Origin: Takakia lepidozioides
Taxonomy: Eukaryota > Plantae > Bryophyta
NCBI GenBank assembly: GCA_030704615.1
Contig: CM060731.1
Span: forward strand, 93,496,001-93,560,000
Direction: 5' to 3'
Length of the DNA stretch: 64,000 nt
Numbering within the stretch: the stretch's first letter is position 1; every line of letters begins with the position of its first letter. Shown here one piece after another: positions 10,545 through 53,141 of this stretch. A program made the translations under genes and the position numbers. Below the pieces are notes generated by a model. The model was not told the DNA's origin. It worked only from the letters and a program-made list of their open reading frames with translations, and searched no databases.

Positions 10545-10630
10545 TAAGGGGAAGTAGCCCTTGACTCATATTTTATTAAGATTATTGAAGGAAAAACAAT
10601 ATTGAAGGGAAAATAATTAAAACCCTTTTT
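10545..10630 (-). mobile_element. Putative Helentron/Helitron-like terminus
   Basis: Inverted homolog of 33010-33072 (GGGTTTTAATT...CCCTTCAATA...short GGG/CCC hairpin), which lies downstream of an EEP endonuclease relic. Confidence 0.35.
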
Positions 10631-22586: not shown

Positions 22587-23518
22587 TTATTCTCCGCAAT
22601 AAAGGCACAATTCATCCGAGCGCCGTCTTTGTTTTTTTTGTGGCGTCAATGGCTTGAATTGGACAGTATCAATCTGCATGGGATCACTACCGGATGTCTG
22701 ATGGATTGTTGTGTTTGGTGCCGTAGTAGCAGCGGCATGATGCGTCGTCGACCATCTAGATCGCTTCTCTTGATGTCTTTCGAACAAACGATTATCGCAT
22801 GCAATGACTTGGGTGATGAATTCGCTCAGTGTACTCACGTTTGGCATTGTCAGCAACAAATCTTTTACATCCTCTTTTAGCCTACATCGAAACTGACTAA
22901 TGAGGCTCTTCTCATTTCAGTCGAGGTCGCACGCAAGTTGTCGAAATTCGGCAGCATAAACGGAAGCAGGACGTGCTTCTTGTCGAAGATTTCGCATCTT
23001 TGTCTTTGCAACTCTCTCTCTAGCATTCTCTCCAAACGTTGCAGTGAACTCGGACATGAACGCTTCAAAATTGTATAATAATTGCGAATTTTTTCTAATA
23101 GCGGTGCAAACCAAGATATGACAGTGCCTGATAGAAGGGTGCCCACGAATCCCACTTGAATACCTTCATCGGGGTAACGTTGTGGATGTAGTCGTAGGAA
23201 CAGTCGTACTTGTTGAACAAAACCGCGAAATCTTGTTCTCGTCCCATCAAATTTCTCGGGCATGCAGATCTTTGGTTCTCTCGTAATCTGTTGAAGATGA
23301 ACCGTTACAGTAAGAGCTGTTGTAGTATGGACTCGTATGGTTGAAGATTCATTGTTCGATTCCTTTAACTCTGAAATTTGTTGTTGCAAATTGTGGAGAG
23401 CGTTGCCAAAATCTTGAGACTGATCAGCTTGTAATTGGGCGGTAGAGGTACGAAGTTCTTGCATCTGGAGCTGAAGACTGTGCAAGGTGGCGACCATTTT
23501 CGCAAATGTGTCTTCCAT
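22587..23518 (-). pseudogene. Retrotransposon gag, frameshifted
   Basis: ORFs 22877-23518, 22917-23114 and 22587-22859 together give a capsid domain and the start of a CCHC knuckle. Confidence 0.85.
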
Positions 23519-23556
23519 CTTAACTAACTAAAGAACAAACTTGAGTCTCGCCAAAC

Positions 23557-27699: not shown

Positions 27700-29640
27700 C
27701 CAGGGACCACATGTTCCCAGCCACTCCAAGAGGATGCTCTGAAGTGTAGTGTGAAGAAGTTAAGAGGATTCTATTGCTTGTTCAGCAGGTTCCATGCTCA
27801 CCAATAATGCATTATAGAGAATAGGTGCGTTGACTGTGTCCAAGTAATTCTTGCGACCTTTCCATGTTCCAATGTCTGTCAAACAAATACAGTCTTGTAT
27901 TAAAAAATTGGGTGGAATATAGAGTATGTTGAGACTGTGATCTCATCACTACCTCAATCAGTGCAACCTTTGTGTGTTTGGTATGTGCCTCTGAAGAACA
28001 ATGACTGGATTGTGGAACAGGGAACATTGGCAACATCCCCCTTGTGATGATAGGGTCAATTTGTCGAGACGACAATAACCCATTTGAGGATTCGAGCACC
28101 TGCAATACCAGTGGGGTGGCCTACATATCCTTTGGCCAGTGGGTATGTTTTATTCGACATGGATTTGATGCTAGATTCCTTTGCAACTGAAAGATTCTAC
28201 ATATTGGTAGCTCATACTGTTGAGCTTAAGTGCTGTCTAGCAATAGTTGAGTGAACTTTTCGATTAGATTGCTCTCAGTTGGCTGTTGCCTAAGTTGTTA
28301 CTTGCTCCAAACTTCAGTCCACAGGTGAGCGCAAGTGCATGTTTGATGAAGTTGAACATGTTTGGCATCAACCAGTGGATGCCAGTAATGTGGGGTTACA
28401 GGCCCCTCAATAGGAATCATAATGGGAAGCAGGTCGGGGCGGTCATTGTGTACACCTTTGCGTACCACATGTTGGCACCTCCTACACCACCTGGTGAAGT
28501 CACCCCTTCGACTGCGTATGGGGATTCAGTGGCTATAAAAATGGAGATTACCAATGGCTTGTCTGAAACTGTTCCAGAGCTTCCCAATTATGTTGATGTG
28601 GATGACTCTATCTCTGTCCCATTGCTTCTTCCGCAATCCTTGCCTACAGTATCCAAGGTCAGTGAAGAGTCCTAAGTTTCACTGGATGTGTTGGATGGTA
28701 TCTTCATGGGGATTTTGTTCATATGTCTTCTGCATAATTGGGCATGTGAGGGTTCACCTACTCTGCTTGCACCGGAGATCTGTATTCTTGTCCAAAATAA
28801 AAAGGGAGATTCTTTCTGAAGCAAGCATAAGCTATGATGCCAGTTCACCCCGAAGGGCTACTGCCTTCTGTTTGGAAGGTGGACGTATTCTTGTCCATAT
28901 GGATAGTAGACATACCCTGAATTGAAGCTAATGCTTGTGTGTATACACCTGGACATAAAGCACAGGGCAATTGAGCTCTTGCTGTGATGGCCTGCATGAA
29001 TCGATGCACTAGCTAGGATTCAATGATCGTTGAACAATTTAGCTCCCCAAGGTTTTTCCAAGGGGACCTTAGGGTTATACACTTTGGTTTTTTATGACCA
29101 TTGACAGATGCGGGCTGGGGAGGCTGCTGGCATCGGAATAACCTGAGTCTGGCTGGAGTATAAGGTGAGCAGGCCAGATAGGTATGTGCTTGAAACCCGT
29201 ACCCAATAAAAGCATCCTGGTTTGTTTCTGTGATGTGCAATATTGGAAGGGAATCACTTTGAGTAGTCACCCACTGATGTGGTTTGAAGCTTTCTTCTCC
29301 TTCTCTGAGCAGGATTTTCCATTGGTCGGGGATTCCCTCAATTATGGAGGAGATGCCAGCCCTCAGTCTGTTGGTCCCAAGTGCTTGTTGAAGGGTGTCT
29401 GGAGTGCTGGCCCAGAGGAAATACCTGTGCAGGCAATTCCTTTTCCTTCGCAAATTTTTCTGCATGGGCCTTTATGTTAGAGGGTGACGGGTGGCCGATG
29501 TGTTAGAGAAGCAGCTGCCGGAAAATGGGTGGTAAGTACTGCGACCAGACCGCGACACCCCCTATCTCTGGTGGGAAGAACATCTCAATTGGGTTTCCAA
29601 GCAGGTGGGCTTGACTTAATATATTTTCTGTTAATGAGCA
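27700..29640 (-). mobile_element. Heavily decayed LINE-like ORF2 3' region
   Basis: Protein-like minus-strand fragments (29013-29465: ISSIIEGIPDQWKILL) resemble the post-RT region of L1-type elements. Boundaries are approximate. Confidence 0.3.
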
Positions 29641-29647
29641 GCCTTGG

Positions 29648-30830
29648 ATGCTGTGGGGATGGGCTATAAGATTTTCATGCATGTCCATGTGATAAAACCC
29701 TGTACTACGGAGAGGATGCGAAACTCACCAAGTGTCCAAAGTGCAACAAAGACCGATATCGGGATGATGTTCAAGGGAAGAAAGCCCCGCGCAAGGTATA
29801 CCCGCGCCACAATACACTTGTATATTGCATTCTACCTTTTTGCAACCGCTACAAGACGTAAGGTTTTACTTAGAGATATGAATGACACTGATTATGATAT
29901 GGGGCCGACATGGGGATGGTGCCAGAAAATGCACTACTTTCCAATCATCCCGCGACTGCAGGCACACTACCGAAGCCCCTCATTGGCAGAACTGATGAGA
30001 TGGCACGCCTCGCATCGGACCCCCCCAGGAAAGGTGTGCGGGCCACAATATTCACAAGCATGGAGGCATACTGAAGAGATGTGGCATTTTATCTTGGAGG
30101 ACCCACGACATGTCCGCCTCAGCTTCTCCTCGGATGGGGTCAACCCATTCTCTGTCCAGTCATGTAGTCATTCCACTTGGCTGGTGACCATGGTGAATTA
30201 CAACATCCCTCCGTATCTTTCAATAAAAAAATGTCATATCATGTTGGCTGCCATTGTACCGGGTGAGTGTTTCCATTTCATGCTTAGTATTACTTTGGAT
30301 TTTACATTAATCTTCTTCTCTTTGGCGCCGATGGAAGATTGATGAGTGACGTAATCATGTAGTAAGATGTGTCATTCATTATGAAGTATAATTAGCATGG
30401 TGGAGCATTGAAACAATTAATGGTGTGAATGTCTCATAGGGAAAAAACAAGTGAAAAACATGGACACGTACTTGCGACCTCTAGTTGATGAAGTGAAGGA
30501 GTTATGGAGGGGGGTCCCGACATTGGATGCTTCACTTGACCCTATGGCCGGACAATCTTTCAAATGAGAGGCATCTTGCTTTGGACAATGCATGATTATC
30601 CAGGTATATTATGTTCCCCATGAGAAACCCGCGTACATTTACCTGTCAAGGGATATTGAAGAGGATTGGGATTGATTGAAGTAGCAGCGACAGTCTTCTG
30701 CACCGTAGTGGGATAGATGCACATGGAAACTTTTTGTCTTTCCTAATGTGGCGGAATGTCTACAGGACTTACTGTTTGCTCGGGGTTGAGCACTAAAGGG
30801 TACCACGCATGCCTGCATTGTGGCGATAGT
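29648..30830 (+). pseudogene. CACTA (Tnp2/Transposase_21) transposase fragment with introns
   Basis: HACPCDKTLY..CPKC; HYFPIIPRLQ; VRLSFSSDGVNPF; STW...NYNIPP; MDTYLRPLVDEVKELW; LLWTMHDYPG; GYHACLHC. Confidence 0.9.
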
Positions 30831-32720: not shown

Positions 32721-33148
32721 CATTCCTTGCTACCAACATATATTATCATCATCTCACCTCCATAGGGCTCCAACCCTATTTCCCTCCCAGCCTTAGTTTA
32801 GTCTACGATCGACTCGACTTGGCTTTTGTCTCTCCCTCAAACGGTTGTAACTCCTCTTCATTAGAGGCGATAACTCTATATTTTAGGCCAAACGCCTCTG
32901 ATATTCTGTGGTTGTAGATAGGCCTAGGTAAATGGCTCTCAGTTACTGTTCTTAGTCATCCGGCACGGTCTCTGTGCGATCAGCCTCATGGTGGCCTTGT
33001 GGCACTCTAAGGGTTTTAATTTTTTTCCCTTCAATAATTCCAAATAAAGCTTCCAGGGCCATACCCCTGTTTATATATATATATATCATCATAATACTCT
33101 TATAGGTAGTCACCATATAAGGAGGAGCCATTACGCGACGAGCCGCTT

Positions 33149-33475
33149 TGTCAAGTTATTTTACCACTAGTGTGAAACTAGCTAGGAAATAGCTAGCTTT
33201 TACATATTGACATTTGGGATTGGCCCAAGTGTCAATCCAGGGGTCAAGGCAGATTTAGGCCCTGGAGTGGTTATCTTCACAGCAAGCGTGGGAGGCTCAT
33301 CTTTCTCGAGTTGAGCCTCACCGCGCCTAGCTATGGCGCCGTAGTGTGTATTCCCCATGGCGTGGGGTGCACTTGGCTTGACTTGTATTTGAGTGATGAG
33401 GTTATATATGCATGAGTTTATGCTTCAGCTTTGTGAGCTCGCATGAGCTTGTGCTTGTATTCTTCCTCTTTATCA
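33149..33475 (+). repeat. Repeat A1 (327 bp)
   Basis: Matches 44428-44754, with two substitutions seen by eye. Confidence 0.97.
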
Positions 33476-33519
33476 CTCGAGAAAGATCAGCTCGTATCTG
33501 TGAGTGCCAGATACGAGTT
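33475..33519 (+). promoter_or_regulatory. Putative self-priming site plus a conserved hairpin at the PBS position
   Basis: ACTCGAGAAAGAT (33475-33487) is complementary to 33299-33311. Stem 33491-33500/33508-33517. Confidence 0.7.
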
Positions 33520-35004
33520 AGTTGTAGCACTTGTGGTTTTTGCTTGAGAATGAGAGAAACCAAGTTGTTATGCAAGGAGCACCGTGGAGCTCTTAGTTGT
33601 TAGAAGCGGAGGCGAGGTGGGTTACGAGGTGGTAGACCTTGGCATTCGATCTTCAGCTTCAGAGATGAAAGCACCATGCTGCAGGTAATTCCAGAGCACC
33701 TTGATGGTTCCAGATTGTGTACATGCATGCGCAAGCACGATTGGGAAGAGGACCAGTCAAGAGCAGGTTATAGTGGCTTTGGTGGCAAAGCTGAGAACTG
33801 GACTTGGGAATGCGAGCTTTCATTGTGTGAAGGATTGCAAGACCAAGCGAAAGGGCTGATTTTGCTTGGGGCAAATCAGTGCACTTTGTGGAGTATGGTG
33901 AGATTGGGTTTCAATCTCGAGCTTCAGCATTGAGAGGGCTCTTGTCATGGCAAGAGCAGGGCTGGAACAGGAGCTAAGAGGTGCGGCAAGGCCATGGAAT
34001 GTGCACCTAGGGTTTCAGAGCTTGGAAGAAGAGTTCTTGCACCACAAGAGAAGTGTCTTGTGGCTGGAAATGTAAGCCTTAGGGTTTCAGGAGCTTGGCA
34101 AAGGCTATGGAGTGCTTAGTCTTGTCATAGAGAGCATCAAGGAGCCAAGATAGGGGGCTGATATCTCTTGTGTGAAGAGGTTGCATGTGTGGAGCATGTA
34201 TTCAGCTCATTGAAGCTTCCATCTTCAAGCTTGGAGGGCAAGCAAGGAAGAGGGAAGGGCTGACTTCCCTTATGTGAGGGCAATGTATGTGTGGAGCATG
34301 CTATCAGCCTGGTGAAGGCTTGCACTTTTAGGTGTGGGAGTGCAAGAAAGGAAGGAAGGGGCTGGTTTCCCTGTAGGGCATGTAGAGCATGCTTTCAGCC
34401 TGCTGAAGCTTGTATTATCAGGTTTGTGGGTGCAAGAAATGAAGCAAAGGAGCTGATTCTCTTATGGTGAGAGTGGGGCATGTGTGGAGCATGCCTTCAG
34501 CCCATTGAGGCTCTTGTTTTCAAGCCTTAGAGAGCTAGAACGGAAGGTCTAGGGCTGGTTTCCACTTGGAGTGAAAGAAAAGCACTTGTAGGGCCTATGT
34601 GAGTTGGGGTTTCAACTTCAAGCTTGAAGGGAGCGCAACTCTTGAAGCAACAGGTGTAGAGGGCTGGAATAGGCTCTAAGACAGATGCTATGGCCAATGA
34701 GGGGAGTGCTTGAATGAGTGCTCACAAGGGCTGGGAACCAGCAGGGCTTGGTTGTTTGCCATTGAGTTTAGTGGCGTGTTTGGGGAGGCTAAGTGAGAAA
34801 GAAGGCTTGGTTTGTGGCAACCACCTCATGGCTTAGGGCTACTATGGTGGTGTGTGGGAGCCGAAAGAGCAAGATACCTTGCTGATTTCCTCACAGCCAC
34901 CATAGCTCGGTGGAAAAGAAGCCTAGAGTCCAAGAGACAAAACCCTAGCTTGGCGTAGCTAAACCCCTTGGAGAAATGGCTAAACTGCCAGAGCGGCCAT
35001 GTGT

Positions 35005-36410
35005 GGGGCTGTGTCAGGCTGTGGCAAGCTGTGACGGGCTGTGACGGGCTGTGTCAGGCTGTGGCGAGCTGTGAAGGGCTGTGACGGCTGTGGCAAGCTG
35101 TGACTGTGCCCTGTGGGGGGCTGTGACGGGCTGTGTCAGGCTGTGACAGGCTGTGCCCAGTGGCCTTTTGGGGCTGTGCGGGCTGTGCGGGCTGTGACAG
35201 GCTGTGCCTGAGGCTGTGGGGCTGTGACGGGCTGTGACAGGCTGTGCCATGGCCTTTGGGGCTGTGATGGGCTGTGAGGGGCCTGTGACAGGCCGTGCCT
35301 GAGGCCTTTGAGGCTGTGATGGGCTGTGATGGGCTGTGACAGGCTGGGGCTGTGCCTGTGCCCTGTGGGGCTGTGACGGGCTGTGTCAGGCTGTGAGGCT
35401 GTGCCAGTGGCCTTTGGGGCTGTGACGGGCCTGTGCGGGGCTGTGACAGGCTGTGCCCTGAGGCCTGTGGGGCTGTGACGGGCTGTGACAGGGCTGTGCC
35501 CATGGCCTTGGGGCTGTGATGGGCTGTGATGGGCTGTGAGGGGCTGTGACAGGCCGTGCCTGAGGCCTTTGAGGCTGTGATGGGCTGTGAGGGGCTGTGA
35601 CGGGCTGTGAGGGGCTGTGACAGGCCGTGCCCATGGCCTTTGGGGCTGTGACGGGCTGTGAGGGGCTGTGACAGGCCCTGTGCCTGAGGGGGGGCTGTGA
35701 TGGGCTGTGAGGCCGTGCCTGAGGCCTTTGGGGCTGTGATGGGCTGTGAGGGGTTGTGACAGGCCCTGCCTGAGGCCTTTGGGGCTGTGACGGGCTGTGA
35801 GGGGCTGTGACAGGCCGTGCCTGAGGCCTTTGAGGCTGTGACGGGCTGTGAGGGGCTGTGACAGGCCGTGCCCATGGCCTTTGGGGCTGTGATGGGCTGT
35901 GAGGGGCTGTGACAGGCCGCGCCTGAGGCCTTTGGGGCTGTGACGGGCTGTGAGGGGCTGTGACAGGCCGTGCCTGAGGCCTTTGGGGCTGTGATGGGCT
36001 GTGACAGGCCGTGCCTGAGGCCTTTGAGGCTGTGACGGGCTGTGAGGGGCTGTGACAGTCCGTGCCTGAGGCCTTTGAGGCTGTGACGGGCTGTGACGGG
36101 CTGTGACAGGCCGTGCCTGAGGCCTTTGAGGCTGTGACGGGCTGTGAGGGGCTGTGACAGGCCGTGCCCATGGCCTTTGGGGCTGTGACGGGCTGTGAGG
36201 GGCTGTGACAGGCCGTGCCCATGGCCTTTGGGGCTGTGACGGGCTGTGACGGGCTGTGACAGGCCGTGCCTGAGGCCTTTGGGGCTGTGACGGGCTGTGA
36301 GGGGCTGTGACAGGCTGTGCCTGAGGCCTTTGGGGCTGTGACGAGCTGTGAGGGGCTGTGACAGGCTGTGCCCAGTGGCCTGTGGGACTGTGACGGCTGT
36401 GACCAGTGAG
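35005..36410 (+). repeat. GGCTGTGA-based minisatellite (10-bp subunits, about 51-bp higher-order unit) in the element leader
   Basis: The unit GGGCTGTGACGGGCTGTGAGGGGCTGTGACAGGCCGTGCCTGAGGCCTTTG repeats over about 1.4 kb. Confidence 0.97.
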
Positions 36411-36692
36411 CTGTGTGGGCCTGTGCTGGTCTGTGGTGGCCCGTGTTGACCTGTGGATGGCCTGTGCTGACTCGTGGAGGCACTGGTGGACTAAGGACTG
36501 GCATGTGGTCTGGAAGGCCGAATTTTGAAGCTCGTGGAGGGCGGTTTGAGGAGTATCTTCATGATATTCCCATGGTCATGCAAGTTCAGGTGTAGGCTAT
36601 GTTAGGAACTTAGTATTCCAAACCATAAGCCGCAACAGGTTCTCTACCCGGTTACCTTGTGGAGAGGGGGTTAGGGACATGTTCATGACCGG

Positions 36693-39600
36693 TTGAGTGT
36701 CAACACGGAGGTGCCACTAGTTGCTGGGGACAGTGCCGGTTCGAGCACTAGCGATACTAGTGGGTACACGAGACGAGGTGTGCGGTTTAGGCCACCTTCA
36801 CCTCCTGTGTCTTCCACGGAAGGTTCTGATTCGGATTGTGAATCAGGAGGGCTCATACCGGCGGTGCAAGTTGTTTCTTTGCCATTATTGTGGGACACAA
36901 TGGAGGAGATGTATGGAGCTACCAAGGGGCCACGAAGGTACTCTGGGGCGGTGGGCACCATTGAGTTGGATGATTTTATCCAAGAGTTTGATAGTTGGTG
37001 TGATTTGCAGCAAATGCGCAATCCACAACTATTTACGCCGTTCATGGCATGGAAAGGGCTGTTTCAGCACCTTGAGGGGCCGCCTATGGATGATTACCAT
37101 GAGTTCAGGCGGGGGCATGAGGTTGAGATCGAGGAGTGGAGGATGTACTGGTCACCCGACTATGTCTCCATCACTAGGGGCACTAGAGCCACGAGGGCAG
37201 TGGCTACACCTGCCGCTGCACCGGCAGCTTCAGCAAGTAGCAGTGGGACTGGTGGTACAGTAGCTACGACGTCCACCCAAGCCACTACCGCACCAGCACT
37301 AGCACCCGTGCCTGCCTTCAACCCTGTTGTGGAGTTCTTCGAAGAGTTGAGAGGGAACTACCAAGGGGTGAGGACAGAGAAGTTGCGGAGCTTGCAAGAG
37401 TTCCAACGGAAGCCGACCGAGAGCTTGAGGGAGGCTTTCACTCGCATGAGGCGCTTGATAAATGTAACCCAAGGGGTTACGGAAGCTCAGGCAGTCCAAT
37501 TCTGGTATGGGATATTGGACAAGGAGCTGAGGAGAAGGGTGCGGGATGCAACTCTCCTACAAGCGGCCCAACCCACCTTAGCAAATGTGTTTTTGCTGGC
37601 AGAGCGGATAGAGCTCAACATGGTGGAGGAACGAGTGGTCATGGTGGGATTTGCTAAGGAGACACCACGGGGTAGTGGTGCTCCTAGCCAACCACTACCT
37701 CAACGTGCTCAAGGCAACAAGGGGGCTCAGGTGAAGCTCAGGGAAGGGCAGAGAGGACCTCAGATGCAGGGGTCTCTCCCTTCATTTGCTGGCCAACAAC
37801 GGGCGGATGTGGTGTGCTGGACATGTGGAGGACCCCATGTCAAGAAGGATTGCCCAGAGGGAGGCAAAGGGCCGGCACATGCACAGCCTGCACAGTTGCA
37901 GTGTGGGCATTGTGGCAAGCACGGGCATGGAGAGGCCCAGTGTTATGGTTTGCATCCTGAGTTGCGCCCAGGCCAGTTCCAAGGGAACAATGGTGGCCGG
38001 GGGCGAGGTGGAGCAGCCCAGAGAGGACGAGGTGGCCAGCCACGAGGTGCAGGCCAAGGGCAAGCTCAACGTGGCCAAGGACGCGGAGGTCAGGGTGTTG
38101 ACCAAGGCATGGCCAACCGGCTTCAGCAGCTAGAGCAGAGGCTCGCTGCCATGGCTACAGCTCAGGTGGTACCGGCTCTAAGGCCGGATGGTCCACCTCC
38201 TGCTCCTGAGGGAGGAGATATGGGAGGCATGGGATTCATGTGTGGAGCAGCACTACCACTAGTGCAGGTGGAGTCTGCTGCAGCCGTGACTCGAGGAGCA
38301 GCACGAGTTCCTGAGCCACGAGGTGCAGAGGTGGAGTTGGATCCACAGCGTGGGGAGGCAAGCCGTCAGGCTAGGCTTCCTCAGTCATTCACATTGGCGG
38401 AGACAGTGTCGACGCCATCCATGGCACCTAGTTCTCGCCCGACTGTTACCGAGGCGGAGGTTACTATGCCATTGGGGAGAGCTACACGGGTAGCACCACT
38501 ACCTAGTGTTGCCAAGGCTACGGCAGCTAGTGTGCTGCTAGGAGCGGCCACATCTGTGTGCCAGGCTCCATTGTTCTCGGCTACCATGATTGCGACGCCG
38601 GGGGTAAGACCAGCTGAGGTGTTCAGGCTGGCAGCTACACTCTGTGAGAGTGGGGAGGTTACTTCATCTTCTGCGGAGATAGTGGGAGGTGTAGTGCCGG
38701 AGGGATCCTCGGATTTGAGGGTCAAGACTGCCACGGCGGCGCCATGGCAAGCTGCAGCTGCCAGGTTGATGGAGCTGCCAGCTAGGCCAGCCATTGAGCG
38801 CGCCATGGTGACACCTGGAGTTGTCATGTTAGACAACCAGGATGGCATTTTCTGTTTGAGTGGACCGGCAGGCAAGAGGTACCGGCCACTGCGAGTCTTG
38901 TTGGACTCGGGAGCTCAGCCACTGATGCTGGGCAGAGCTGCTATTGCAGGCTTGGGCCTCACGGAGGCGGATATGGAGCCTTGTCCTTTCCAGATACAGA
39001 CGTCTCTGGGAGGATCGGAGCAGGCTCGGGGCATGACACGGCATGAGTTGGCTATCAGACTACGGCCGGATCACCCTACAGATGGCTCAGTGATGCGAGC
39101 CAAGGCCATTGTGACAGACGCAGTCTCATACGATGTCCTGGTTGGTGGGGCAGTGTTGTACCCCATGGGCTTCACCCTGGATTTTTGGGAGGAGTCAGCT
39201 TCCTATAGGCCTGCATGGCAGTCAGGGGAGGGCCGGCGTGTGCAGCTCCCTGTGACGTTCATAGGAGGAGTTGCGGTTGCCCAGCGAGGCAAGATGCCGA
39301 CACTAGCAGCATTCACAGCGGCAGTGAGTTGGCCTAGAGAGTTGCTTGAGGGCAATGCTCATTCAGAGGATGTACCACCTCCGGGAGAGCAGGATGACAT
39401 GTATGGTATGGCGGAGTTGCCTACCATGGTTGCTCAGACTCCATTGTGGGGCACGAGCAAGGATTTGCAGCGGGATGCTGATCGACGGGTGCAACAAGCC
39501 TGGGTGGAGGCTTTTGTACCGTCAGGAGAGGAGGAGAGTGTGGGGATTGCACCAGGACCACCTCAATTGTCTCCATTGGACACCACACCTATTGTGTGGC

Positions 39601-40843
39601 AGTCTCCGGATGAAGGCATTTGTCTTCTGGACTTGTTTGGCGGGATCAGCACCGGATTGGCTGCTGTGTTACAGGCAGGTGTACGAGTTCGGCGTTACCT
39701 GTATGTGGAGAGGGATGAGACTGCACGACGCGTTTCACTTCGCCATGTTGCTCAGTTGGTGCAGCGGTACCCTGAGTTGTTGTCGGTGTCTGCAATTCGT
39801 GGATATCAGCAGGCCTTGCCAGCAGACATTTCGTTGCTGGGGGCGCAGGATTTGGAGCGGGTTGGCTCCATTGATCTGGTAGTGGCAGGTTGGCCCTGCC
39901 AAGGGCATTCATCAGCCGGGCATGGCAATGGATTGCGAGACTCGAGGTCGGGTCTGTTTTGGGAGATGGTGCGGGTTTTGCGCCACTTGCAGCTTCATCA
40001 AGCTGTATCTCCAGCATACATCTTGGAGAATGTGCCACTGATGGGCGATTCTCGGGCCAGGGTGATGGCCAGTGTGCATCAAGTCCGGTCGTGGCTTGGG
40101 TCAGCAGTGTTGCTAGATGCAGCTACAGTGGGGTCACGGGCTCATCGTCCACGGCTATGGTGGACTAACATGATGCCACCCGCACTGCTCAAGCGTGCAT
40201 TTGATGGGGTGCAGCGGCCAGCACATCTCACAGTGGATAACATTCTGGACACAGGGAGGCAGTCTCAACGTGTGAGACACGATGACCGTTCGCCTTTGGC
40301 AGTGGTCAAGGTACCATTACACTGCTCAGCTTCCCAGGATCGCATGCTTTCCGGGATAGTGGACCTGGCCTCCTGTGGGATGCTCAGTTGCAGCAGTTAG
40401 TGGAGCCTAATGCTGACGAGCGTGAGCGGGCAATGGGTTTTACCACTGGTACCACGGCGGTGTCGTCTCTTTCTGAGGCATCACGTCGTCAAGTGTTGGG
40501 GCAAGCAATGGATCTCAATTGCTTGACCTGGATTATCAGCTTGGCTCTAGCTGAGCAACGCAGAGTGCGGAATACACTTCCCTCAATGGTCTCTCTGCCT
40601 ACCGAGACGGTACAGGCAGTGAGTGGGGGCGAGCATATGAGGACCACGGGGTGCATGCATCCATGGCACACGTGGGAGGTGCTCGAGGTTCAGAGGGAGT
40701 TGGCAGCCAAGGCGGCTGTGATGGATGAGGTTGGGGATTCTTCTCGAGTTGAGGAGGTCCTCAAGGATGAGATGATGGGGCAGGATGATGCCTTGTCATT
40801 GACTGAGCAGGTAGGGAGTACTGCTCAAGAGGTTGCAGCATAG
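36693..40843 (+). CDS. Gag-protease-C5 DNA methyltransferase polyprotein, with a frameshifting deletion at about 40310
   Basis: Capsid-like region; knuckles CWTCGGPHVKKDC and CGHCGKHGHGEAQC; protease VLLDSGA...YDVLVG; DNMT motifs at about 39618-40560. The first in-frame ATG is at 36900. Confidence 0.93.
39618..40560 (+). other. DNMT3-like cytosine-5 methyltransferase domain
   Basis: LLDLFGGISTG (I), YVERDE (II), VAGWPCQGHS (IV, catalytic Cys at 39897), YILENV (VI), RAHRPRLWWTN (VIII), ERERAMGF (IX), RRQVLGQAM (X). Confidence 0.95.
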
Positions 40844-43800
40844 CAACCACGGGACGCGTCCTCTACCTCTAAGCCCACTGGACTTAAGGTTGTAGTTACG
40901 GAGGACAATTGGGAGCCTGACATTGGACCCATTGTCACCGGAGGAGAGAGACGACGTATACGGCGGTTCCTGAGGGCTTACAGGAATTGCTTTGCCTTCA
41001 GTTTGAAGGACTTGGGAGCACTGAAGGGTCAAGAGATCCGTATTGAGTTGGCCACTGACACGCCAATCTTTCGGAGACCCTATAGATACAGTGACATGGA
41101 GAGGTCTTTGATTCAGATGAGGACTCAAGATCTCTGGGAGGCAGGTTTGGTGGAGCTCTCTGGTGGAGAGTATGCTTCAGCCACAGTGATGCCAGCCAAG
41201 AAGGATGTCTATGGCAATTGGACGGAGAGACGTATGTGCGGTGATTACCGGCCTGTAAATCGTCAGACCAAGTCCGATAAGTATGCCATGCCAACACCAG
41301 AGGAGATCTTTGATGCCATCGGGCATGCTAAGGCCTTTAGCACTTTGGATTTACGATCCGGATATCACCAGTTGCCAATCAAGGAGGCGGACAAGCAGAA
41401 GACGGCATTCTGGGGGATCAATGAGCACGGCAAGGATTGCCTATATCAGTGGCGGTTCTTACCATTTGGGCTTAAGAATGCTCCTGCAGAGTTTCAGAGA
41501 GTCATGGATAGGATTCTAGCAGGGGTGGACTTTGCTCGGTGCTACATAGATGACATCATCATCTTTAGTGTTACGATGGAGGAGCATGAGAGACACCTTC
41601 AGGTGGTATTGGAGCGCTTGAGAGCGCACGGATTGAAGTTGCATCCGGGGAAGTGCAAGTTTTTCCACAACCAGATTGAGTATCTGGGTCACATGATATA
41701 TCCTGGAGGATTGGGGGTACAGCAGACTAAGGTAGAGGCCATTGCACAAATTCCACGCCCCACGGATGTGAGCCGAGTTCGAGCTTTCATGGGGTTGGCA
41801 AACTATTATAGACGGTTTGTCAAGGGATTTAGTACCATTGCAAAGGCTCTAACCAAGCTGACCAAGGTGGACCAGGAGTGGCAGTGGGAAGATGAGCAGG
41901 AACGAGCTTTTCAAGAGCTCAAGGCGAGGTTGACCTCGGCGCCTATCTTGAGACGACCTATCAGGGGGCGTCCTTTCAGCTGCATACGGATTGGAGCATG
42001 CTGGGGCTTGGAGCGGTGCTCACACAGGTGGATGATGAGGGAAGAGAGTTCGTAGTGGCTTACGCTAGCCGCTCGAACAACGCTGCAGAGGCTAAGTACA
42101 GCTCATATGAGGGAGAGTGCTTAGCTGCAGTGTGGGCCGTGGCACACTTCAGGTGCTATCTATACGGCAATCTTTTCACCCTTGTCACGGATCACCAGCC
42201 ACTCAAGTGGTTGATGGAGTCAGACAAGCTTACGGGGAAGCTTGCACGGTGGGCACTTATACTCCAGGAGTATGACTTTCAGGTTGTGCATCGACCGGGT
42301 TTGGTCAATCGGGATGCGGATGGATTGAGTCGCAATCCATGCATGAGCCAGCAGGATGACACTGGAGCTCGGTGGCATGGTGAGACGGACGAGGAGATGG
42401 TGCCGGGATGGCACGCATCTGCATTTTTGTGTATCTTGGCATCGGGAGGTCAGATTGGACCTACAACAGGGATGACTGTAGACGGAGTGTCTGAGGACCC
42501 TGAGGCTAGTGATGAGCTAGGTGGTGCCAGAGATATACATGAGGATTCGGCTGTGTTGGACTACCTCCGCACGGGAGACACGGCAGCCATTGTGACTGCC
42601 AGGGAGAGGGATCGGATCCTGCAACGAGCCAAGAGGTTCAAGTGGGAGGGGATACACCTACTTCGAGTGTGGGAGGATGGTCGGGTGAGGATTGTGCCTC
42701 ACCCCACACAGCGTGCACGGTTAGTGCGGCATGCCCATGAGGAGTTGGGGCATTTTGGAGTGCGACGCACTCACAGTTTACTGCAGGGGCAGTATTGGTG
42801 GCGTGGTATGCATACAGAGGTGCAACAGTTTGTGGCTAGGTGCATGGTGTGTGACAGGGTGCGTGCTTCATTCAACGCCCCTACACCACAGTTGCATCCT
42901 TTACCTATCATGGGATTGGGCTACAGGTGGAGTCTTGACTTCGCAGGACCGTTGCCACTGACTATGCGCCACCACAGATATGTGTTGGTGATGGTGGAGC
43001 ACTTCTCCAAGTGGATTGAGTTGGTTCCATTGCCTGACAAGGCTAGTGAGGGGGCTGCGTATGCATTCTTGGATCGTGTGCTTAGCCGATTTGGTGCTCC
43101 AGCTGAGGTACTCACGGACCAAGGGAGAGAGTTCTTGGGGGAGTTTCAGGCTTTGTGTGATAAAGCCTTGATAGACCACCGCACCACTTCTCGGGATCAT
43201 CCTGAGGCCGATGGCTTAGCAGAGAGAGTTGTTCAGACGGTGAAGAGGGGTTTGCGCAAGTATGGCTTGCAGAAGGGACACCTAGGAGATTGGGATCTTC
43301 AGGTTCCTTGGTTAGCCATGGGCTACAGGTTCAGCAAACAAGCATCACTTGCCTCCTTCTCACCATATTTCCTTCTCTTTGGCCGAGAGCCGGATTTGCC
43401 TGCAGCCATTCGTAGGGACACTGCTCAAGTCCTTAACCTTGACGATCCGGACGTGTGGGTACGTGCATGTGATCAGCGTGCAGAGTTGTTCAAGAAAGTC
43501 ATGCCCATGGCTTTTGAGAACCTTGCCATTGCACAGCACCGTGATACGTTGAGGTATGCCACTATACGTGGTGGAGGATATCGTCCTGGGGTTCGGAGGT
43601 TTAGCCCTGGTGACTATGTTTATTTGCAGCAGACTGCTCCTACGACTCTGGATGTTACTGCAGGGCGTGTTATTCTGAGGGTTCGAGAGGTGTTGCCCTC
43701 AGGGGTCCTGATCTTGGAGGGTCGGGATGGCATGACTTGGAAGGACCATGTGCGTAATTGTGCGCCATGTCACCTTCCCAATGTCGATGGCAGAGTTGAC

Positions 43801-43977
43801 CCAAACTTGGCAGTGGTACCTGCAGGTTTGAGGTGCATGCTCTGTGGGTCTGCCAAAGGGGCAGCCACCATGCTGGTGTGTGATCGATGCTCAAGGGGTT
43901 GGCATATGGGATGCTTGACACCACCTCTTGAGAAGGTTCCTGACGGAGATTGGTTGTGTCCACACTGCTTGGGATAG
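40844..43977 (+). CDS. RT-RNase H-integrase-PHD, with a 1-bp frameshift at about 41978
   Basis: RMCGDYR, LDLRSGYHQ, LPFGLKNAP, YIDD; RNase H TDWS..YSSYEGECLA..TDH; HHCC, SLDFAG/TDQG/AER; PHD at 43834-43968. In frame with the upstream ORF across the TAG at 40841-40843. Confidence 0.95.
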
Positions 43978-44220
43978 TGGCAGTGGACATGACTGGAGGC
44001 AGCTAACAAGACATGGGAGGCCAAGCTCATAGGAGTCAATACATGAGATCCCAAGCTCAAGTTCACAGGTTGCAAGACGACGACTAACGATGGGGCAACT
44101 CTTGCACCCGGCCTCTTGATCTATCGAGTTTGAGTGTAGTAGGGATAGTGGTGGAGGACTTAGTGAGGCTATGGTCACTATCACATCTTGTGGCTACCTG
44201 GACTTAGAGGGACCTAAGCA

Positions 44221-44236
44221 CCAGCTAGGGGGGCGA
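44221..44236 (+). promoter_or_regulatory. Polypurine-tract-like motif
   Basis: CCAGCTAGGGGGGCGA lies directly before B1 and is conserved in copy 1 (1539-1554, minus). Confidence 0.7.
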
Positions 44237-44943
44237 TTGTGTGGACTAGTGATTGCCATAGTGGGCAGCGTAGTGGCAGCCTAGTGACTGACTAGTTGTA
44301 GCCTAGTGGTTGGACTAGTGGCTGGACTAGTGGTAGACTAGTGGTATACTAGTGTGTGGTGTGCACATGTGTTGTGTGGTTTTGGACAGCGATGTAGTTG
44401 TGTAGCGATATGTATGCGCACGACAGCTGTCAAGTTATTTTACCACTAGTGTGAAACTAGCTAGGAAATAGCTAGCTTTTACATATTGACATTTGGGATT
44501 GGCCCAAGTGTCAATCCAGGGGTCAAGGCAGATTTAGGCCCTGGAGTGGTTATCTTCACGGCAAGCGTGGGAGGCTCATCTTTCTCGAGTTGAGCCTCAC
44601 CGCGCCTAGCTATGGCGCCGTAGTGTGGATTCCCCATGGCGTGGGGTGCACTTGGCTTGACTTGTATTTGAGTGATGAGGTTATATATGCATGAGTTTAT
44701 GCTTCAGCTTTGTGAGCTCGCATGAGCTTGTGCTTGTATTCTTCCTCTTTATCATTGTGTGGACTAGTGATTGCCATAGTGGGCAGCGTAGTGGCAGCCT
44801 AGTGACTGACTAGTTGTAGCCTAGTGGTTGGACTAGTGGCTGGACTAGTGGTAGACTAGTGGTATACTAGTGTGTGGTGTGCACATGTGTTGTGTGGTTT
44901 TGGACAGCGATGTAGTTGTGTAGCGATATGTATGCGCACGACA
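44237..44943 (+). repeat. B1-GC-A2-B2 terminal block
   Basis: B1 (44237-44425) and B2 (44755-44943) are both 189 bp and look identical; both contain internal CTAGTGG repeats. Confidence 0.97.
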
Positions 44944-45849
44944 GCTTGTTTATGTCAATTTACTTGCATCAAATCTCTCTCAATCAAACAAGCATGTCCC
45001 AAAAGTTAAAACGTTACCTTGACAGATCTGAGCCAATGATTATGAATAATATGATTTTGAATAATTGGATTGTGGAAACAACCTTTGAAGAAACCAATTT
45101 CATTATTGTTATCAGTCTCATATTTAACTTGGTCTAATCGCACTAGAGTTGGTTGGGAGTTTCTACTTTGCCTGTGCATAATTTAGATGATCTAGGGTTC
45201 GAAATGTCCACCTTTCAACGGAAGGCCATAGGCCCTCGGGATGAAGAGACATCATAAATATTCAAGCTTCCGGCTTTGGGAGGCATCATCATTTTTTTTT
45301 AAATTTGTTTTGGGCCCGATCCGATCAAATCTCACTTTGTCCTTTGTTTTCTCGACCTTGCAAAGATGTGGCAATGCCAAAGGGATCATGATCGGCATTG
45401 AGAGTTAGATATCCTTCATTTAGGATGAAAAGCTATATTTGAGTATGGCTACATGTCATGCTATAGTAGATTTTGAAAATGATATATAGATGACGCCAAC
45501 TGGAGGGGAACCGGAGTTAACGTAAATAAGAATCTATTTCCCCTTTCGGGGGTGGGCCTTATGAAATGGGTCGTATCTACGAGGTGATAAGTTGGCCACT
45601 CTCAATCTTGCGTTTGTCGAGGACATTGAGAGCTATAAGTTCTCTGATAGCCATAAAATGTAGGGTGCAAAGGAGTTTAGTGATGGCGGTACGGGATAGT
45701 AACTTTCAATTTTTGTTTCAAAATATTGATATTAATGTGGTTATGAGCGTCACTCCTAACACCTGCAATAATAATAGTCAATGAGACGATATGTCATCCA
45801 TGCTGGTGAAGGGTCAGCACCAAGGGTTCATATTTCTAACGATTATAAT

Positions 45850-47939: not shown

Positions 47940-50900
47940 GCATTATCTGACTACAGACACAAGCAGCACACAGAATGTGGAACCTTTGACCAATGGTACG
48001 TGAAGAGGTGACGCCCACCAAGGTCACGTTCGTTTCTGCTCTCAGCAGCGTGTGCCAGCATAGGTGCCCTGGAAAAGGGAAAACAGGTCCAAGCTGACAT
48101 TTTGAAAGCTGGAATTGCACCAGATATCATTCTAGAGGTTGCCCTTGCTGCCATCTATGCCAAGTGCGGGAGCATAAAGGAGGCCCGTCGAGTTTTCGTC
48201 AATATGGCTGGACGAGATGTGGTTTCATGGAGTGCGATGATTGCAGGATATGCTCAGCAAGGGTGTGGTCAGGAGGCCTTGGAGACCTATGAGCAAATGA
48301 TATGGGAAGGGTGGGTACCGAACAAAGTCACATTCACTTCCGTTCTCGATGCATGTGCCAGCCTAGCAGACCTGGAAAAGGCCAAAAAGATCCATGCTGA
48401 TATTATCAAAGCCAGAATTGAGCCACCCGACATCCTTGAGCGCGGAGGGGTTTCACGCAATATGGTGACGGTACCCTCTTCTTCGACCTATTTCAGCCTG
48501 TTTTTGCCTCTCATCAGACTAGGCCCTGAGATGCCTGTTATCAGAATCAGCCCTAAATTTTCATGTTGAATTCTGCAAGTTAGCTGGTTGACTAAACCTT
48601 TGATAGTTTGGAGTGACTGACATGATACTGCCAATGTGACAACAGGAAAGTATCCAGAAACAGGTAACAAAGACGAGAAGCTGTGGAATGAATACTTTTC
48701 TGACCCCTGTTAATGGTGGGACAATCGAGGCAAAAAAGGTAAATGCCTGTTGGATTACAGAGAGTAGCAGATGCAATTGAGCATAGGAACTAGTGTGATA
48801 AGTTGAGTTGGGTGTTTCCTAGAACAAATCTAGGCTGTCATTGTCAGCTGCTAGCAGCAAAGCAAGGATGTATGCATGATTTGTACATAGGCATGGATAG
48901 CTGAAGGAGCAGGGATAGAGTGTGGGTCCAGACTCATCCAACAGGGCCGGACTTCAAGCTCTAGATGACCTATGATTCCCTGTGGATCAATAGCTACAAG
49001 AAACCTGCATGGGGAAATGGTCAACTAACTAGCGCAACATAAAGAGTGCAGTCTTAACATTCAGTGACAATCTGCCATCACACCCCATCGATTCATCAGC
49101 TCCTGACAACGGGTGTTGCACATATATTACTATGCTCAAATTTATGGGCATATACCGTTACCACAACTTCTGAAAGAGGATCAAGAGAGGGAGTCCACAA
49201 TGCCTCTTCTGGCACTTCTGGGCATGTGAAGATGCTTTGTGAGGCAAGCAAACTGAAAGAGGCTCTACAAACTTTAAACCAAGGAGGAATTTCAGCAGAT
49301 TCAGATACGTATGTCTGTCTCTTGCATAAGTGCATCAAGATGAAAGGCCTTGAAGCTGGAAAGCAGGTGCACACGAGGGGTGAAGCCCATCCACAGCACG
49401 TTCGTTTGTGTTTGCGGACTCAGAATCAGATCCTTGAAAACCGCTTCTTCCGCCAGGACTTAACCTGTTTGACAGGGCAATCCTGCTTCCAAGATAGAGT
49501 CGATTAACTTAGGGTATGTGTTTTTAGTCCTACATTGCAGCTGACCCAACCATCTGACCTTGAATTCCTCTCGTCTAGAGTTATACATAGAGAGAGTATT
49601 CCTAGGACGTTGTTTGCCGTAGCCTTGTGGACATTGACTCCGCGCCCAGTTTAAACAATTGATCCGGGTTTTCCAGATATCCTCTAGAAATCCCTTTACA
49701 CAAGCATCAACCTGCTGTGTGTGGTTTGCCCAATAACTAGGCCCCAAAAGGGCCTGGGCGTTTGGCTCAGCCTCGAGACTTTCAAAGTTGCTAAACAGAG
49801 GTACAGGCGTATGAGCAAATGATGCGCGAAGGGGTGAAGCCCAACCACATCACGTTCGGTTGCATTTGCAGTGCGTATGCAAGCCTAGGAGCCCTAGAAA
49901 AGGGGAAAGAGGTCCATGATGACCTCGTCAAAGCTGGAATTGTACCAGATGTCATTCTCAACACTGCCTTGGTGGACATGTATGCCAAATGTGGGTGCAT
50001 TAAGGATGCAAAGGCAGTTTTCAACAATATGCAGGCTGAACGAGATGTGGTGTCGTGGAGCGCGATGCTTGCAGGGTATGCACAGCAGGGACGTGGGGTG
50101 GCGGCTTTGGAGACCTATGAACAAATGATGGGGGAAGGGGTGAAGCCCAACCACATCACGTTTGTGTGCGTTTGCAATGCGTGTGCAAAGCCTGGGAGCT
50201 CTGGAAAAGGGCAAAGAGGCCCACGGCGACATCGTCAGAGCTAGAATTGTACCCGATGTCATTCTGAACAATGCCCTCGCGGACATGTATGCCAAATGTG
50301 GGAGCATCGAGGATGCGAAGGCAGTGTTCAACAATATGGCTGAATGAAATGTGGTGTCATGGAACGCGATGCTTGCAGGGCATACACAGCAGGGGCGCGG
50401 GATGGAGGCTTTGGAGACGTGTGAGCAGATGATGGTGGAAGGGGTGAAGGCCGACCACATCACATCTATGCGTTTGCAAGCTTGGCAGCCCTGGAAAATG
50501 GCAAAGAGTGCATGGTTGTATCGCAAAAGCTGGAATTGTACCAGATGTGATTCTGAACGATATCCTCGTGGGCATGTATGCAAAATGTGGGTGCATTAAG
50601 GATGCAAAGGGAGTTTTCAACACTATTGCTGAACGAGATGTGGTGTCATTGAAGACGATGCTTGCAGGGTATCCACAACAGGGACGTGGTATGGGGGCTT
50701 TGGAGACCTTGATCAGATGATGGGGCAAGGGTGAAGCCCAACCACATCACGTTTCTATGCATTAGCAATGCGTGTGCAAGCCTGGCAGCTCTGGAAAAGG
50801 GCAAAGAGGTCCATGGCGACATGGTCAGAGCTGCAGTTGTACCAAATGTCATTATGAACAATACCCTCGTGGACATGTATGAAGGGAGTGTTTGACAATA

Positions 50901-51075
50901 TGGTTGAATGAGATGTGGTGTCGTGGAGTGCGATGATTGCAGGATATGCACAGCAAGGGCACGGGATGGAGGCTTTGGAGACCTATGAGCAAATGATGTG
51001 CAAAGGGGGTGAAGCCCAACTACATGACGTTTGTTTGCATTTGCAATGCGTGTGCAAGCCTGGCAGCCCTGGAAA
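47940..51075 (+). pseudogene. PLS-class PPR repeat pseudogene segments
   Basis: Repeated ALVDMYAKCGCIKDA..VF..M..RDVVSW.AM.AGYAQQG.G..ALE.YEQM..EGVKPNHITF, with stops and frameshifts. Confidence 0.92.
48666..49028 (+). pseudogene. OSB-type PDF ssDNA-binding motif split by an intron, upstream of a PPR N-terminus
   Basis: KLWNEYFSDPC*WWDNRGKK (48666-48738), a GT..AG intron, then THPTGPDFKL*MTYDSLWINSYKKPAW (from 48932). Confidence 0.7.
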
Positions 51076-51081
51076 AGCCCT

Positions 51082-53140
51082 ATTCCAGAGCTGCTAGGCT
51101 TGCACACGCACTGCAAAACACACAAACGTGATGTGGTCGGGCCTCACCCCTTTGCACATCATTTGCTCATAGGTCTCCAAAGCCTCCATCCCGCGCCTCT
51201 GCTGTGCATACCTTGCAAGCCTCGCGTTGGGCAATGTTCAGAATGACATTTGGTACAATTCCAGATTTGACGATGTCACCATGGGCCTCTTTCCCCTTTT
51301 CCAGGGCTGCCAGGCTTGCACACGCACTGCAAATGCAAACAAATGTGCCTTTAGTTGACCATCTACCCATGCAGGTTTCTTGTAGCTATTGATCCACATG
51401 GAATCATAGGTAATCTGGAGCTTGAAGTCCGGTCCCCTTGGATGAATCTGGACCCACATTCTATCCCTGCTCCTTCAACTATCCATGCCTCTGCACAAAT
51501 CATGCATACATCCTTGCCTTGCTGCTAGCAGCTGACAATGACAGCCTGTGACAGGCTCAATAAACTTTGGAATAGAGCTCCAAAGCCTCCATCCCGCGCC
51601 CCTGCTGTGCATACCCCTGCAAGCATTGCAATAATTTCTCGTGCAACAATTTTGGATATCAACTTGGTGCCAGTGTGGCAGTCCCCACATATACATAGGT
51701 TTTTAATGATGCGGATAGGGGTCCTAGGGGGTGTGCTAATGAGCCCAAAAGCTATGGCCAGCTTTTCGCTGTGGTGGTAAAGAGCCCGTTCCTTCATCTG
51801 CTGATCCACATCACGCAACACAAAGCGTGTCTCAGGCACATATCCCGCCTCCTTAATCTGCCAAGTCAATCTCTCTAACGCATCATAGATCTCCTCTGCT
51901 TGTGGGTGAGATCTATCTCCAATGGCAAATGTATCCATCTTGTGATTCCACCTTGAAAATACATTCTGCAGCACACTCTGCTAACTCCACATTTCCATAG
52001 ATTCTGCGGGCACCAAGCAAGGCCCCCCACACTGAAGCACTTGGTTTGAGTGCCATGTTGGCAATAAAATATTCTTCATCCAAGCGCCCTGCATGGCCAA
52101 GGAGGTCAACCATGCAGGTGCAGTGCTTTTCTGTTGGTGTAATGCCATGCTATTGACACATGGATTGAAAATAATGACCACCTTCATCTACAAGGCCCAA
52201 ATGGCTGCATGCAGAGAGAACACCAATAAATGTGACCTCATTTGGCTTCACACTAGTTTAAACAGTTGGAGAGCCTCGTGACCACGCCCATGCTGAGCGT
52301 ATCCTATAATCATCGTAGTCCATGAGACCACATCTGGTTTAAGAATTTTGTCAAACACCTCCCGTGCATCCTCTACACTCCCACATTTGGTATACAAATC
52401 AATGAGGGCATTCCTGACGTAGCATCTGACTCACACACAGATTTGATAATGTAGGCATGGACCCACTTGCCCTGTTCCAGGGATGCTTCACACCCTCTCT
52501 TTGCATTTGTCGAAAGAGTTTGAAAGCCTCCTCACCATGACCACTATGTGCACATCCTCCAATCATCGCAGTCCATGAGACCACATCTCGCTTAGGCATT
52601 CTGACAAACACATTGAGTGCATCCATCACACTCCTGCACTTGCAATACATACTGACAAGGGCATTCCTGAGTCCAACATCTGACTCAAATTCAGCTTTGA
52701 TGATGCTGGCAAGGAGCTGCTTGCCCCGTTCTAAAGCCTCCGGGCCAGCACAAGCGTTGAGGACAATAATAAAAGAGACAATATCTGCCTTCATGCCTTC
52801 TCTTTGCATGCGCTGAAAGAGTTAAAAAGACCATGACCATGCTGAGCAGATCCTGCAATCATAGCAGTCCACGAGAGCCCATTTCGCTTGGGCATTGCAC
52901 GTCAAATACTCGGGTGGCATCCATCAAACTCTCACACCTGCAATACATGCTGACAAGGGCAGTCCCCACAGGGACATCCCCCTCAAGTCCAGCCTCAATG
53001 CACGCACCACATCACGTTCAGCAATACTGTCAAACACTCCATTTGCATCCTCGATGCACCCACATTTGACATACATGTCCACCAGGGCAGTGTTCACAAT
53101 GACATCGGGTACAATTCCAGATTTGATAATGTCACCATGG
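51082..53140 (-). pseudogene. Inverted PPR-E-DYW segment with the DYW domain truncated
   Basis: MVDLLGHAGRLDE, VWGALLGA, FAIGDRSHPQ, GYVPET, HHSEKLAIAFGL...KNLCICGDCH...KIVAREII. The terminal DYW segment is missing after about 51630. Confidence 0.92.
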
Positions 53141-53141
53141 T

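Follow-up and report, generated by a model that had tools for sequence, protein, structure and literature searches.

A DNMT3-like methyltransferase closes the Gag frame of a split-repeat Gypsy element in Takakia lepidozioides, ahead of a conserved stop codon

The Gypsy retroelement KnitGypsy-Dnmt3 of Klebsormidium nitens has Gypsy domains, DIRS-type repeats and a Ka/Ks (ratio of nonsynonymous to synonymous changes) under 0.2 (de Mendoza et al. 2018, PMC5890265; this and the other papers are cited as far as their available text goes), and a 2026 preprint calls it a streptophyte Gypsy-DNMT3 and adds the EpiLTRs, which carry a different DNMT (bioRxiv 10.64898/2026.05.21.726589). Why a transposon carries an enzyme that silences transposons has been asked without answer since 2018, one reason being the lack of a tractable host. 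Here we analysed a 64,000-nucleotide (nt) stretch of the moss Takakia lepidozioides (GCA_030704615.1, contig CM060731.1, positions 93,496,001 to 93,560,000), referred to as the window and numbered from its first letter, which holds a Ty3/Gypsy element with a C5 cytosine methyltransferase (MTase) of its own. The reading that we favour, with moderate confidence, is that of a broken, likely young copy whose Gag frame ends in a DNMT3-like MTase that would be packaged many per particle and methylate the complementary DNA (cDNA), with reverse transcriptase (RT), integrase and PHD finger made by read-through of a stop codon.

The element extends from 33149 (TG) to 44943 (CA) on the + strand as one Ty3/Gypsy element and encodes Gag, protease, C5-MTase, RT, RNase H, DDE integrase and PHD in this order, thus having both the protease-RT-RNase H-integrase order and the DDE integrase of that group; DNA_methylase (PF00145, E 1.4e-12), RVT_1, RNase H, Integrase_H2C2, rve and PHD were matched in Pfam. 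The frame 36675-40400 comprises Gag (methionine at 36900), two Cys/His knuckles, the DSG protease and MTase motifs I to VIII from 39618. A preliminary description made from the letters had reported a full, unpermuted motif set, and motifs I, II, IV, VI, VIII, IX and X were all found; its statement that the domain lies in frame after Gag and protease holds for motifs I to VIII only, as the element is 22 nt shorter than a second copy near 40310, which puts motifs IX-X (40400-40550) into the next frame from about 40319. A second frameshift lies near 41970. Its placing of the MTase between protease and RT overlooked the TAG at 40841; the MTase ends open reading frame 1 (ORF1) and is not simply a Pol domain. 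The repeats are nearly identical as had been said (2 differences in 327 nt of A, none in 190 nt of B), and the broken insertion is likely young; they are split direct repeats, however, not a plain pair of long terminal repeats (LTRs). In copy 2, whose alignment with the main element begins near 6395, the MTase does lie upstream of RT, but the claim of the same position is limited by the lack of any Gag or protease match within the window and by two compensating frameshifts over motif VIII. The features are as follows.

33145-33148, + strand: left copy of the 4-bp target-site duplication GCTT (sequence).
33149-33475, + strand: repeat A1, left element end, beginning TGTCA.
33299-33311, + strand: 13-nt stretch within A1, complement of the sequence after A1; likely the RNA 5′ end (self-primer), where the transcript would start.
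33475-33487, + strand: likely self-priming primer-binding site, with a hairpin next to it at 33491-33517 (0 of 1000 shuffles reach 13 nt).
34989-36509, + strand: tandem array in the 5′ leader with 10- and 51-nt periods (repeat analysis).
36900-40843, + strand: ORF1 with Gag, two Cys/His knuckles (37815, 37902), protease (DSG near 38904), C5-MTase and acidic tail; frameshift near 40310.
39618-40570, + strand: DNMT3-like domain of a C5 cytosine methyltransferase with its motifs in the unpermuted order I-X; a split near 40310 affects the window copy.
40841-40849, + strand: in-frame TAG, then CAA CCA (CAR-YYA read-through motif; motif from PMC2754532).
40844-43977, + strand: ORF2 in the frame of the stop, with RT (YIDD at 41543), RNase H, H2C2 and rve integrase, and PHD; frameshift near 41970.
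43834-43968, + strand: PHD finger at the integrase C-terminus (Pfam; structural relatives).
44223-44235, + strand: polypurine tract adjoining B1 on its 5′ side (sequence).
44236-44425, + strand: repeat B1, with GACA at its end (repeat comparison).
44422-44431, + strand: palindromic B-A junction GACA-GC-TGTC, likely paired integrase attachment sites (kept in copy 2; CA-NN-TG in relatives).
44428-44753, + strand: repeat A2 (repeat comparison).
44754-44943, + strand: repeat B2, right element end, closing with GACA (repeat comparison).
44944-44947, + strand: right copy of the 4-bp target-site duplication GCTT (sequence).
1098-6395, - strand: copy 2, a decayed, 5′-truncated relative with MTase (about 5233-6215), RT, RNase H, integrase, PHD, polypurine tract, B and part of A (alignment).
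17708-18170, + strand: copy 3, the 5′ end of another relative, with a TGTCA start that no B precedes, and with A, self-priming site and hairpin in this order (alignment).

It is close to certain that the MTase is a trait of a whole family. Long homologous proteins (42 + 5) were named from Marchantia (many), Calypogeia, Sphagnum fallax and Closterium; 114 protein clusters were obtained at E<=1e-30, Scenedesmus among them; and 289 of 599 pattern-matched metagenome stretches encoded a relative, as did none of four pattern-matched viral contigs. Eighty of the 289 stretches, including 13 near-identical pairs, were kept as the locus set, and those with an MTase identity of at least 46% and an MTase-RT distance within 500 nt were taken as close loci (17; 15 in frame and 2 shifted, with 3 bearing long insertions skipped). 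Two layouts, separated on the RT tree with a support of 88, were distinguished: one has the MTase before RT, and its named members are streptophytes; in the other, the Scenedesmus type, the MTase lies between RNase H and integrase. In this quick RT tree the elements bearing the stop described below grouped together (support 99), and the RT and MTase trees agreed. A distant family (L029-L080) has the same split repeats, GWECQG as motif IV and no programmed stop. In Marchantia, ORF1s of the family include Mp4g09160, MpVg00370, MpVg00540, Mp5g06330 and Mp5g06860 (P0010, P0063, P0064, P0070 and P0071), two of them on the V chromosome, and these genes are annotated as hypothetical or CCHC-domain proteins.

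The MTase is under purifying selection. Between the main element and copy 2 the ratio of nonsynonymous to synonymous substitution rates (dN/dS) was 0.13 (155 codons) and 0.07 (84 codons) in the MTase and 0.12 in the integrase, not near 1, in agreement with the family trait that the preliminary description had proposed; dN against seven close loci was 0.14-0.24, with synonymous sites at or near saturation. A point against this is the dN/dS of about 0.56 for the MTase and 0.42-0.54 for other domains among decayed copies within one family, values that are expected after insertion. A window copy that is broken twice might suggest that its MTase was captured only once, belongs to a nested insertion or reflects a chimeric assembly. 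This is practically out of the question, being ruled out by the relatives, the metagenome loci and the selection: the same architecture recurs in named liverwort, moss and Closterium proteins and in dozens of loci, the MTase tree agrees with the RT tree, public runs span the whole stretch, and their contigs show other copies that have neither break.

Some relatives differ in further domains or arrangement. The locus L042 contains two family copies in succession (2702-5877 and 9311-10894) with part of an A repeat between them. A G-patch domain lies between MTase and integrase in the algal-type relative P0002 (2030-2073). Thirteen of 37 long RT-RNase H-MTase-integrase relatives (P0001, P0002, P0004, P0292, P0335 and others) have a C-terminal domain in their last 330 residues with DPWxG and/or SPWF-like motifs, for which no Pfam match was found in the two scanned; judged from these motifs, such elements may combine a DNMT3-like enzyme and a PHD with a second, amino-methyltransferase-like methyltransferase, a set that differs from the published EpiLTRs.

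By sequence and predicted fold, the MTase of the element is DNMT3-like and closest to DNMT3A/B. Its motifs read GWPCQG (IV), ENV (VI) and AHRPRLWW, ERAMGF and RRQVLG in the VIII-X region; the likeness to DNMT3 noted earlier was borne out by PDB and Foldseek comparisons, while the letters then quoted for motifs VIII-X (AHRARYFW, ERVFGF, RQRLLG) are those of DNMT3 itself. As also noted earlier, the motifs run from I to X, unlike the circularly permuted DRM. When the Calypogeia relative (P0007) was compared with PDB, DNMT3A/B came first among 48 matches (E 8e-11), DRM followed at 4e-7 and weaker with an alignment covering the first part only, and HaeIII/HhaI at 4e-4 and weaker. For the unbroken locus L003, a structure modelled from a 45-row alignment (pLDDT 93.9) retrieved DNMT3A/B/C by Foldseek in 31 of 31 listed rows (TM 0.63-0.72). 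The catalytic cysteine, ENV and AHRxR were nearly invariant across the 45 aligned sequences (C97, E140, N141, R180 and R182), and the glycines binding S-adenosylmethionine were kept.

Identities were low, being 20-26% to DNMT3 (26% between the MTase half of the window element and fish DNMT3), and phage enzymes were about as distant (24-32%). All of the 118 phage and the single plasmid MTase records lay below 60% identity, with 24-32% in the listed rows, and at such a distance give no sign of a recent bacterial source. In a quick, unrooted MTase tree of 65 rows, three groups were resolved and 50 element-borne domains formed one of them (SH-aLRT 100), apart from nine animal DNMT3s and six phage enzymes. 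Plant host DNMT3 and DRM rows were not part of this tree, the targeted search for plant host DNMT3 having given only animal or animal-type proteins in the best 120 of 806; lacking these and a root, the tree shows one old element-borne group but not the donor.

The TAG at 40841 parts the MTase region from the RT, which goes on in the frame of the stop. A stop was present at the homologous place in all 15 in-frame close loci (14 distinct; 12 TAG and 3 TAA), excluding a private mutation of the window copy. The stop codon is not among the 40 listed differences between public-run contigs and the window copy; with 550 more beyond that listing, this does not count in its favour. The six bases behind it were CAACCC in 12 loci, CAACTC in one and CAGTTA in two, i.e. 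CAR in 15 of 15. CAR YYA following UAG is the read-through signal of tobacco mosaic virus (TMV; PMC2754532), and its strict form was found in two close loci (L023/L024) and in the window copy, which belong to two separate families. The Marchantia ORF1 proteins, of 1278-1281 residues, terminate at the conserved stop, and many database proteins terminate 53-91 residues past the MTase. These patterns suggest that the stop is, with high confidence, programmed and that it is probably bypassed by read-through, from which we infer Gag-protease-MTase as the main product and RT-integrase-PHD as the part added by read-through. Lying at the end of the Gag reading frame, the MTase is probably produced in the same amounts as Gag.

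Several observations weigh against so simple a picture. CAACCC fits only five of the six positions of CAR-YYA. In the distant family, 13 of 24 in-frame loci are fully open and the other 11 have decay stops, none of them programmed, and five of its loci have a stop at one common glutamine codon, which shows that the same site can acquire a stop repeatedly by decay. By a regular-expression count over 196 relatives, motif IV had PC in 85, EC in 71 and another pair in 18, with 22 unmatched; given these EC forms and the stop-free distant family, neither PC nor the stop is universal. Moreover, five Marchantia and Sphagnum gene models fuse the MTase to the RT (P0012, P0015, P0016, P0021 and P0036). 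The stop might be passed by splicing, re-initiation or a second transcript, as would also suit a methionine found two codons after it in many close loci and the absence of strict CAR-YYA from 13 of the 15. We regard this as unlikely: all 15 loci keep the RT in frame with the stop and have CAR behind it, the strict motif occurs in two separate families, and the window copy has no methionine between the stop and the start of the RT.

The repeats are laid out as A1, internal region, polypurine tract, B1, A2 and B2, namely as A...B-A-B split direct repeats, and two whole terminal LTRs of identical type are not present. The priming signals define the LTR as B+A: B1 is preceded by the polypurine tract, and A1 is followed by a site that can pair with the middle of A. 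This primer site is self-complementary and not of tRNA type; the site behind A and A itself were perfectly complementary over 11-15 nt in six of six cases tested (0 of 1000 shuffles each), with different letters in three families, and in copy 3 the letters differ from those of the main element while the pairing is the same. Behind the primer site, both families of the window have a hairpin with the loop TGAGTGC (33491-33517 and 18130-18160), the stem letters being different. The ends of the element (TGTCA at the start of A and GACA at the end of B) meet inside the primer-defined LTR as GACA-GC-TGTC. Exact 4-bp duplications flanked four of eight elements with both ends; B was absent ahead of A in each of the 20 distinct loci whose upstream A is whole; ten of 22 distinct 3′ ends were B-A-B; and the A2-B2 junction matched the expected product of a blunt join of the primer-defined cDNA ends in three families, mostly uniform with few imprecise cases.

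True ends at a CA-NN-TG palindrome inside the primer-defined LTR point to integration of an end-joined circle. By this layout, an internal attachment site is, with good confidence, what the integrase cuts, and the element likely inserts via an end-joined DNA circle cut at that site and not at DNA ends. In the cycle that we propose, (1) the RNA would start inside A1 and prime its own reverse transcription at the site after A1; (2) the plus strand would be primed at the polypurine tract, giving linear cDNA with B+A at each end; (3) joining of the two cDNA ends would create the A2-B2 junction; and (4) the integrase would cut the upstream repeat at its CA-NN-TG palindrome, where B meets A, inserting the DNA as A...B-A-B. 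The joining of the linear ends could precede or follow strand transfer, the cut being at the palindrome of the upstream repeat in either case.

Not all data sit well with this route. The six self-priming cases had been picked after having been noticed; two of the eight elements lacked a duplication and two had one with a single-base mismatch; and the remaining 3′ ends comprised nine with a single B (all nine ending in ACA), two with an incomplete B-A and one unclear. The single-B forms would come from one-LTR circles, double cuts, B1-B2 recombination or assembly collapse. A simple circle also holds two equal palindromes, yet the product A-B-A...B was not seen, an asymmetry that is unexplained; the timing of second-strand synthesis and methylation are candidates for why the upstream palindrome is always used. 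At 1075-1105 (- strand), the shortened A of copy 2 runs into a 16-nt match to the primer site instead of B2, possibly a tandem or rearranged insertion.

A different origin of the split repeats, as in DIRS, PAT and Ngaro with a tyrosine recombinase acting in trans, or with B2 copied from RNA, would be in keeping with the A...B-A-B layout, which is of DIRS type as noted for KnitGypsy-Dnmt3, and with the mostly uniform A2-B2 junction. It appears improbable, for the TG...CA ends, the 4-bp duplications, the DDE integrase under purifying selection, the polypurine tract before B1 and the primer site after A1 all fit the LTR route, and elements with a tyrosine recombinase usually leave no target duplication. 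No tyrosine recombinase was found in the 12 element frames scanned, which cover part of the 27 ORFs listed.

As for what the MTase does, the last steps of the proposed cycle are that (5) the PHD likely tethers the integration complex to nucleosomes without methylation of histone H3 lysine 4 (H3K4) and (6) the MTase likely marks the cDNA, which would arrive looking like host heterochromatin. PHD fingers of the CHD4, KDM5B, PHF12, KDM5A and ATXR5 type read unmethylated H3K4, and these proteins are the best solved relatives of the PHD of the element. Methylation of cDNA in the particle is the most likely role because the MTase would probably be as abundant as Gag and cDNA is the DNA within its reach; we give it an even chance. 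Counting against it, no signature of self-methylation was seen in the observed/expected CG and CWG of the element (coding 0.53 and 1.33, versus 0.52-0.54 and 1.12-1.14 in the flanks), and the KnitGypsy-Dnmt3 enzyme gave no methylation in yeast, a result that its authors called inconclusive (PMC5890265).

Alternatively, the MTase could act on host chromatin, be it the insertion site, sister copies or silencing targets. The resemblance of the PHD to readers of unmethylated H3K4 would suit such a role, as would the Scenedesmus-type relatives, in which the MTase adjoins the integrase and would be carried to the target, and the host DNMT3 of Physcomitrium, which makes heterochromatic CHH methylation de novo (PMC6453930). 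In the window element, however, the MTase lies ahead of the stop in the Gag frame and is therefore likely not fused to integrase or PHD after processing, and we consider the host-chromatin role unlikely. Somewhat more doubtful still is that the domain has been kept as a DNA- or RNA-binding module with little or no methylation. The Klebsormidium enzyme without activity in yeast, the 71 of 196 relatives that have EC where others have PC, and the lack of extra CG or CWG loss are compatible with binding only, but human DNMT3B likewise failed in the same yeast assay (PMC5890265), and the near invariance of the catalytic cysteine, ENV and AHRxR, with the cofactor-binding glycines kept, speaks against it. 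In a far-reaching and doubtful version of the cDNA-methylation reading, a Gypsy lineage as old as green plants would have moved its attachment sites to an LTR-internal palindrome and integrate as an end-joined circle, and in land plants a leaky stop would load the particle with MTase, cDNA methylation shielding one of two equal CAGCTG-type palindromes while the other is cut.

The rest of the window holds an exon of a host gene of the histidine phosphatase family (13460-14233), a Gag-like fragment of another retroelement (22877-23527, - strand; DUF4939, below cut-off), two fragments of CACTA-type Tnp2 transposases (29638-30342 and 58009-58683) and clustered broken pentatricopeptide repeats on both strands (48000-54620) with an E+/DYW domain at 51528-51980; no tRNA genes were found in the window. 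Taken with the named relatives of the element, these broken PPR and DYW genes indicate a host among the non-flowering land plants. Long antisense ORFs at 35014-36575 were rejected as genes, being a product of the tandem repeat, with no Pfam match in the one scanned.

Several unbroken Gag-protease-MTase genes of this lineage, annotated as hypothetical, exist in Marchantia polymorpha, so the question why such an enzyme is carried can be put to the test in a genetic model. From the conserved stop, enzyme amounts at Gag level are predicted, which narrows its likely job, and the element ends suggest an integration route through a circle, which is regarded as a side path for retroviruses. Split-repeat elements are likely missed by LTR finders, and thus the lineage may be undercounted in bryophyte genomes; its genes may also inflate DNMT counts.

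KnitGypsy-Dnmt3 is the closest known system, sharing with the window element the Gypsy domains, an unpermuted, intronless DNMT3-like domain, DIRS-type split repeats and purifying selection, and the window family probably works like it, as its land-plant kin. The two, compared by description and not by sequence, differ in host, alga versus land plants, and in that the DNMT of KnitGypsy-Dnmt3 is described within a Pol ORF with RT and RNase H, whereas that of the window element ends the Gag ORF before a conserved stop; one ORF shared with the RT was found in none of the 15 close loci, but is seen in the distant family and in P0032 of Closterium. The window element has a PHD, a term with 0 occurrences in the available text of PMC5890265, where no integration mechanism is described either. 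No land-plant DNMT-bearing Gypsy lineage, read-through stop of this kind or internal attachment site was found described in the literature searched, which lay mostly outside subscription papers and Repbase, the first of these in agreement with the preliminary description; the available text of PMC12344493, PMC11982613 and bioRxiv 2021.11.30.470311 describes no land-plant DNMT-bearing Gypsy.

Other known systems share single traits with the window element. SymbioDIRS-Dnmt3 of Symbiodinium likewise joins a retroelement-borne DNMT3 to split repeats, but methylates CG de novo in yeast, uses a tyrosine recombinase instead of a DDE integrase and is reported as an independent capture (PMC5890265). 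EpiLTRs and DAM-LTRs are also Gypsy-like with a DNA methyltransferase and a chromatin reader, these being a chromodomain, a DAM and a DNMT sister to DNMT4 (bioRxiv 10.64898/2026.05.21.726589), as against the PHD and DNMT3-like enzyme of the window copy, which has neither chromodomain nor DAM in Pol and whose frame closes at 43977. A primer site complementary to the own repeat is known from the self-priming Gypsy elements Tf1/Sushi and plant Tcn1, which are chromoviruses with ordinary LTRs, in contrast to the PHD and split repeats here (PMC6317226). TMV and rice RIRE2 have an in-frame UAG followed by CAR-YYA as well (PMC2754532), which here parts Gag-protease-MTase from RT-integrase. Finally, the integrases of foamy virus and human immunodeficiency virus likewise cut a palindromic junction in circular cDNA, but there the palindrome is the junction of 2-LTR circles and linear DNA is the normal substrate (PMC1180852; PMC1905944), whereas that of the window element is internal to the repeat, some 190 nt away from where the ends are joined, and defines where the integrated copies end.

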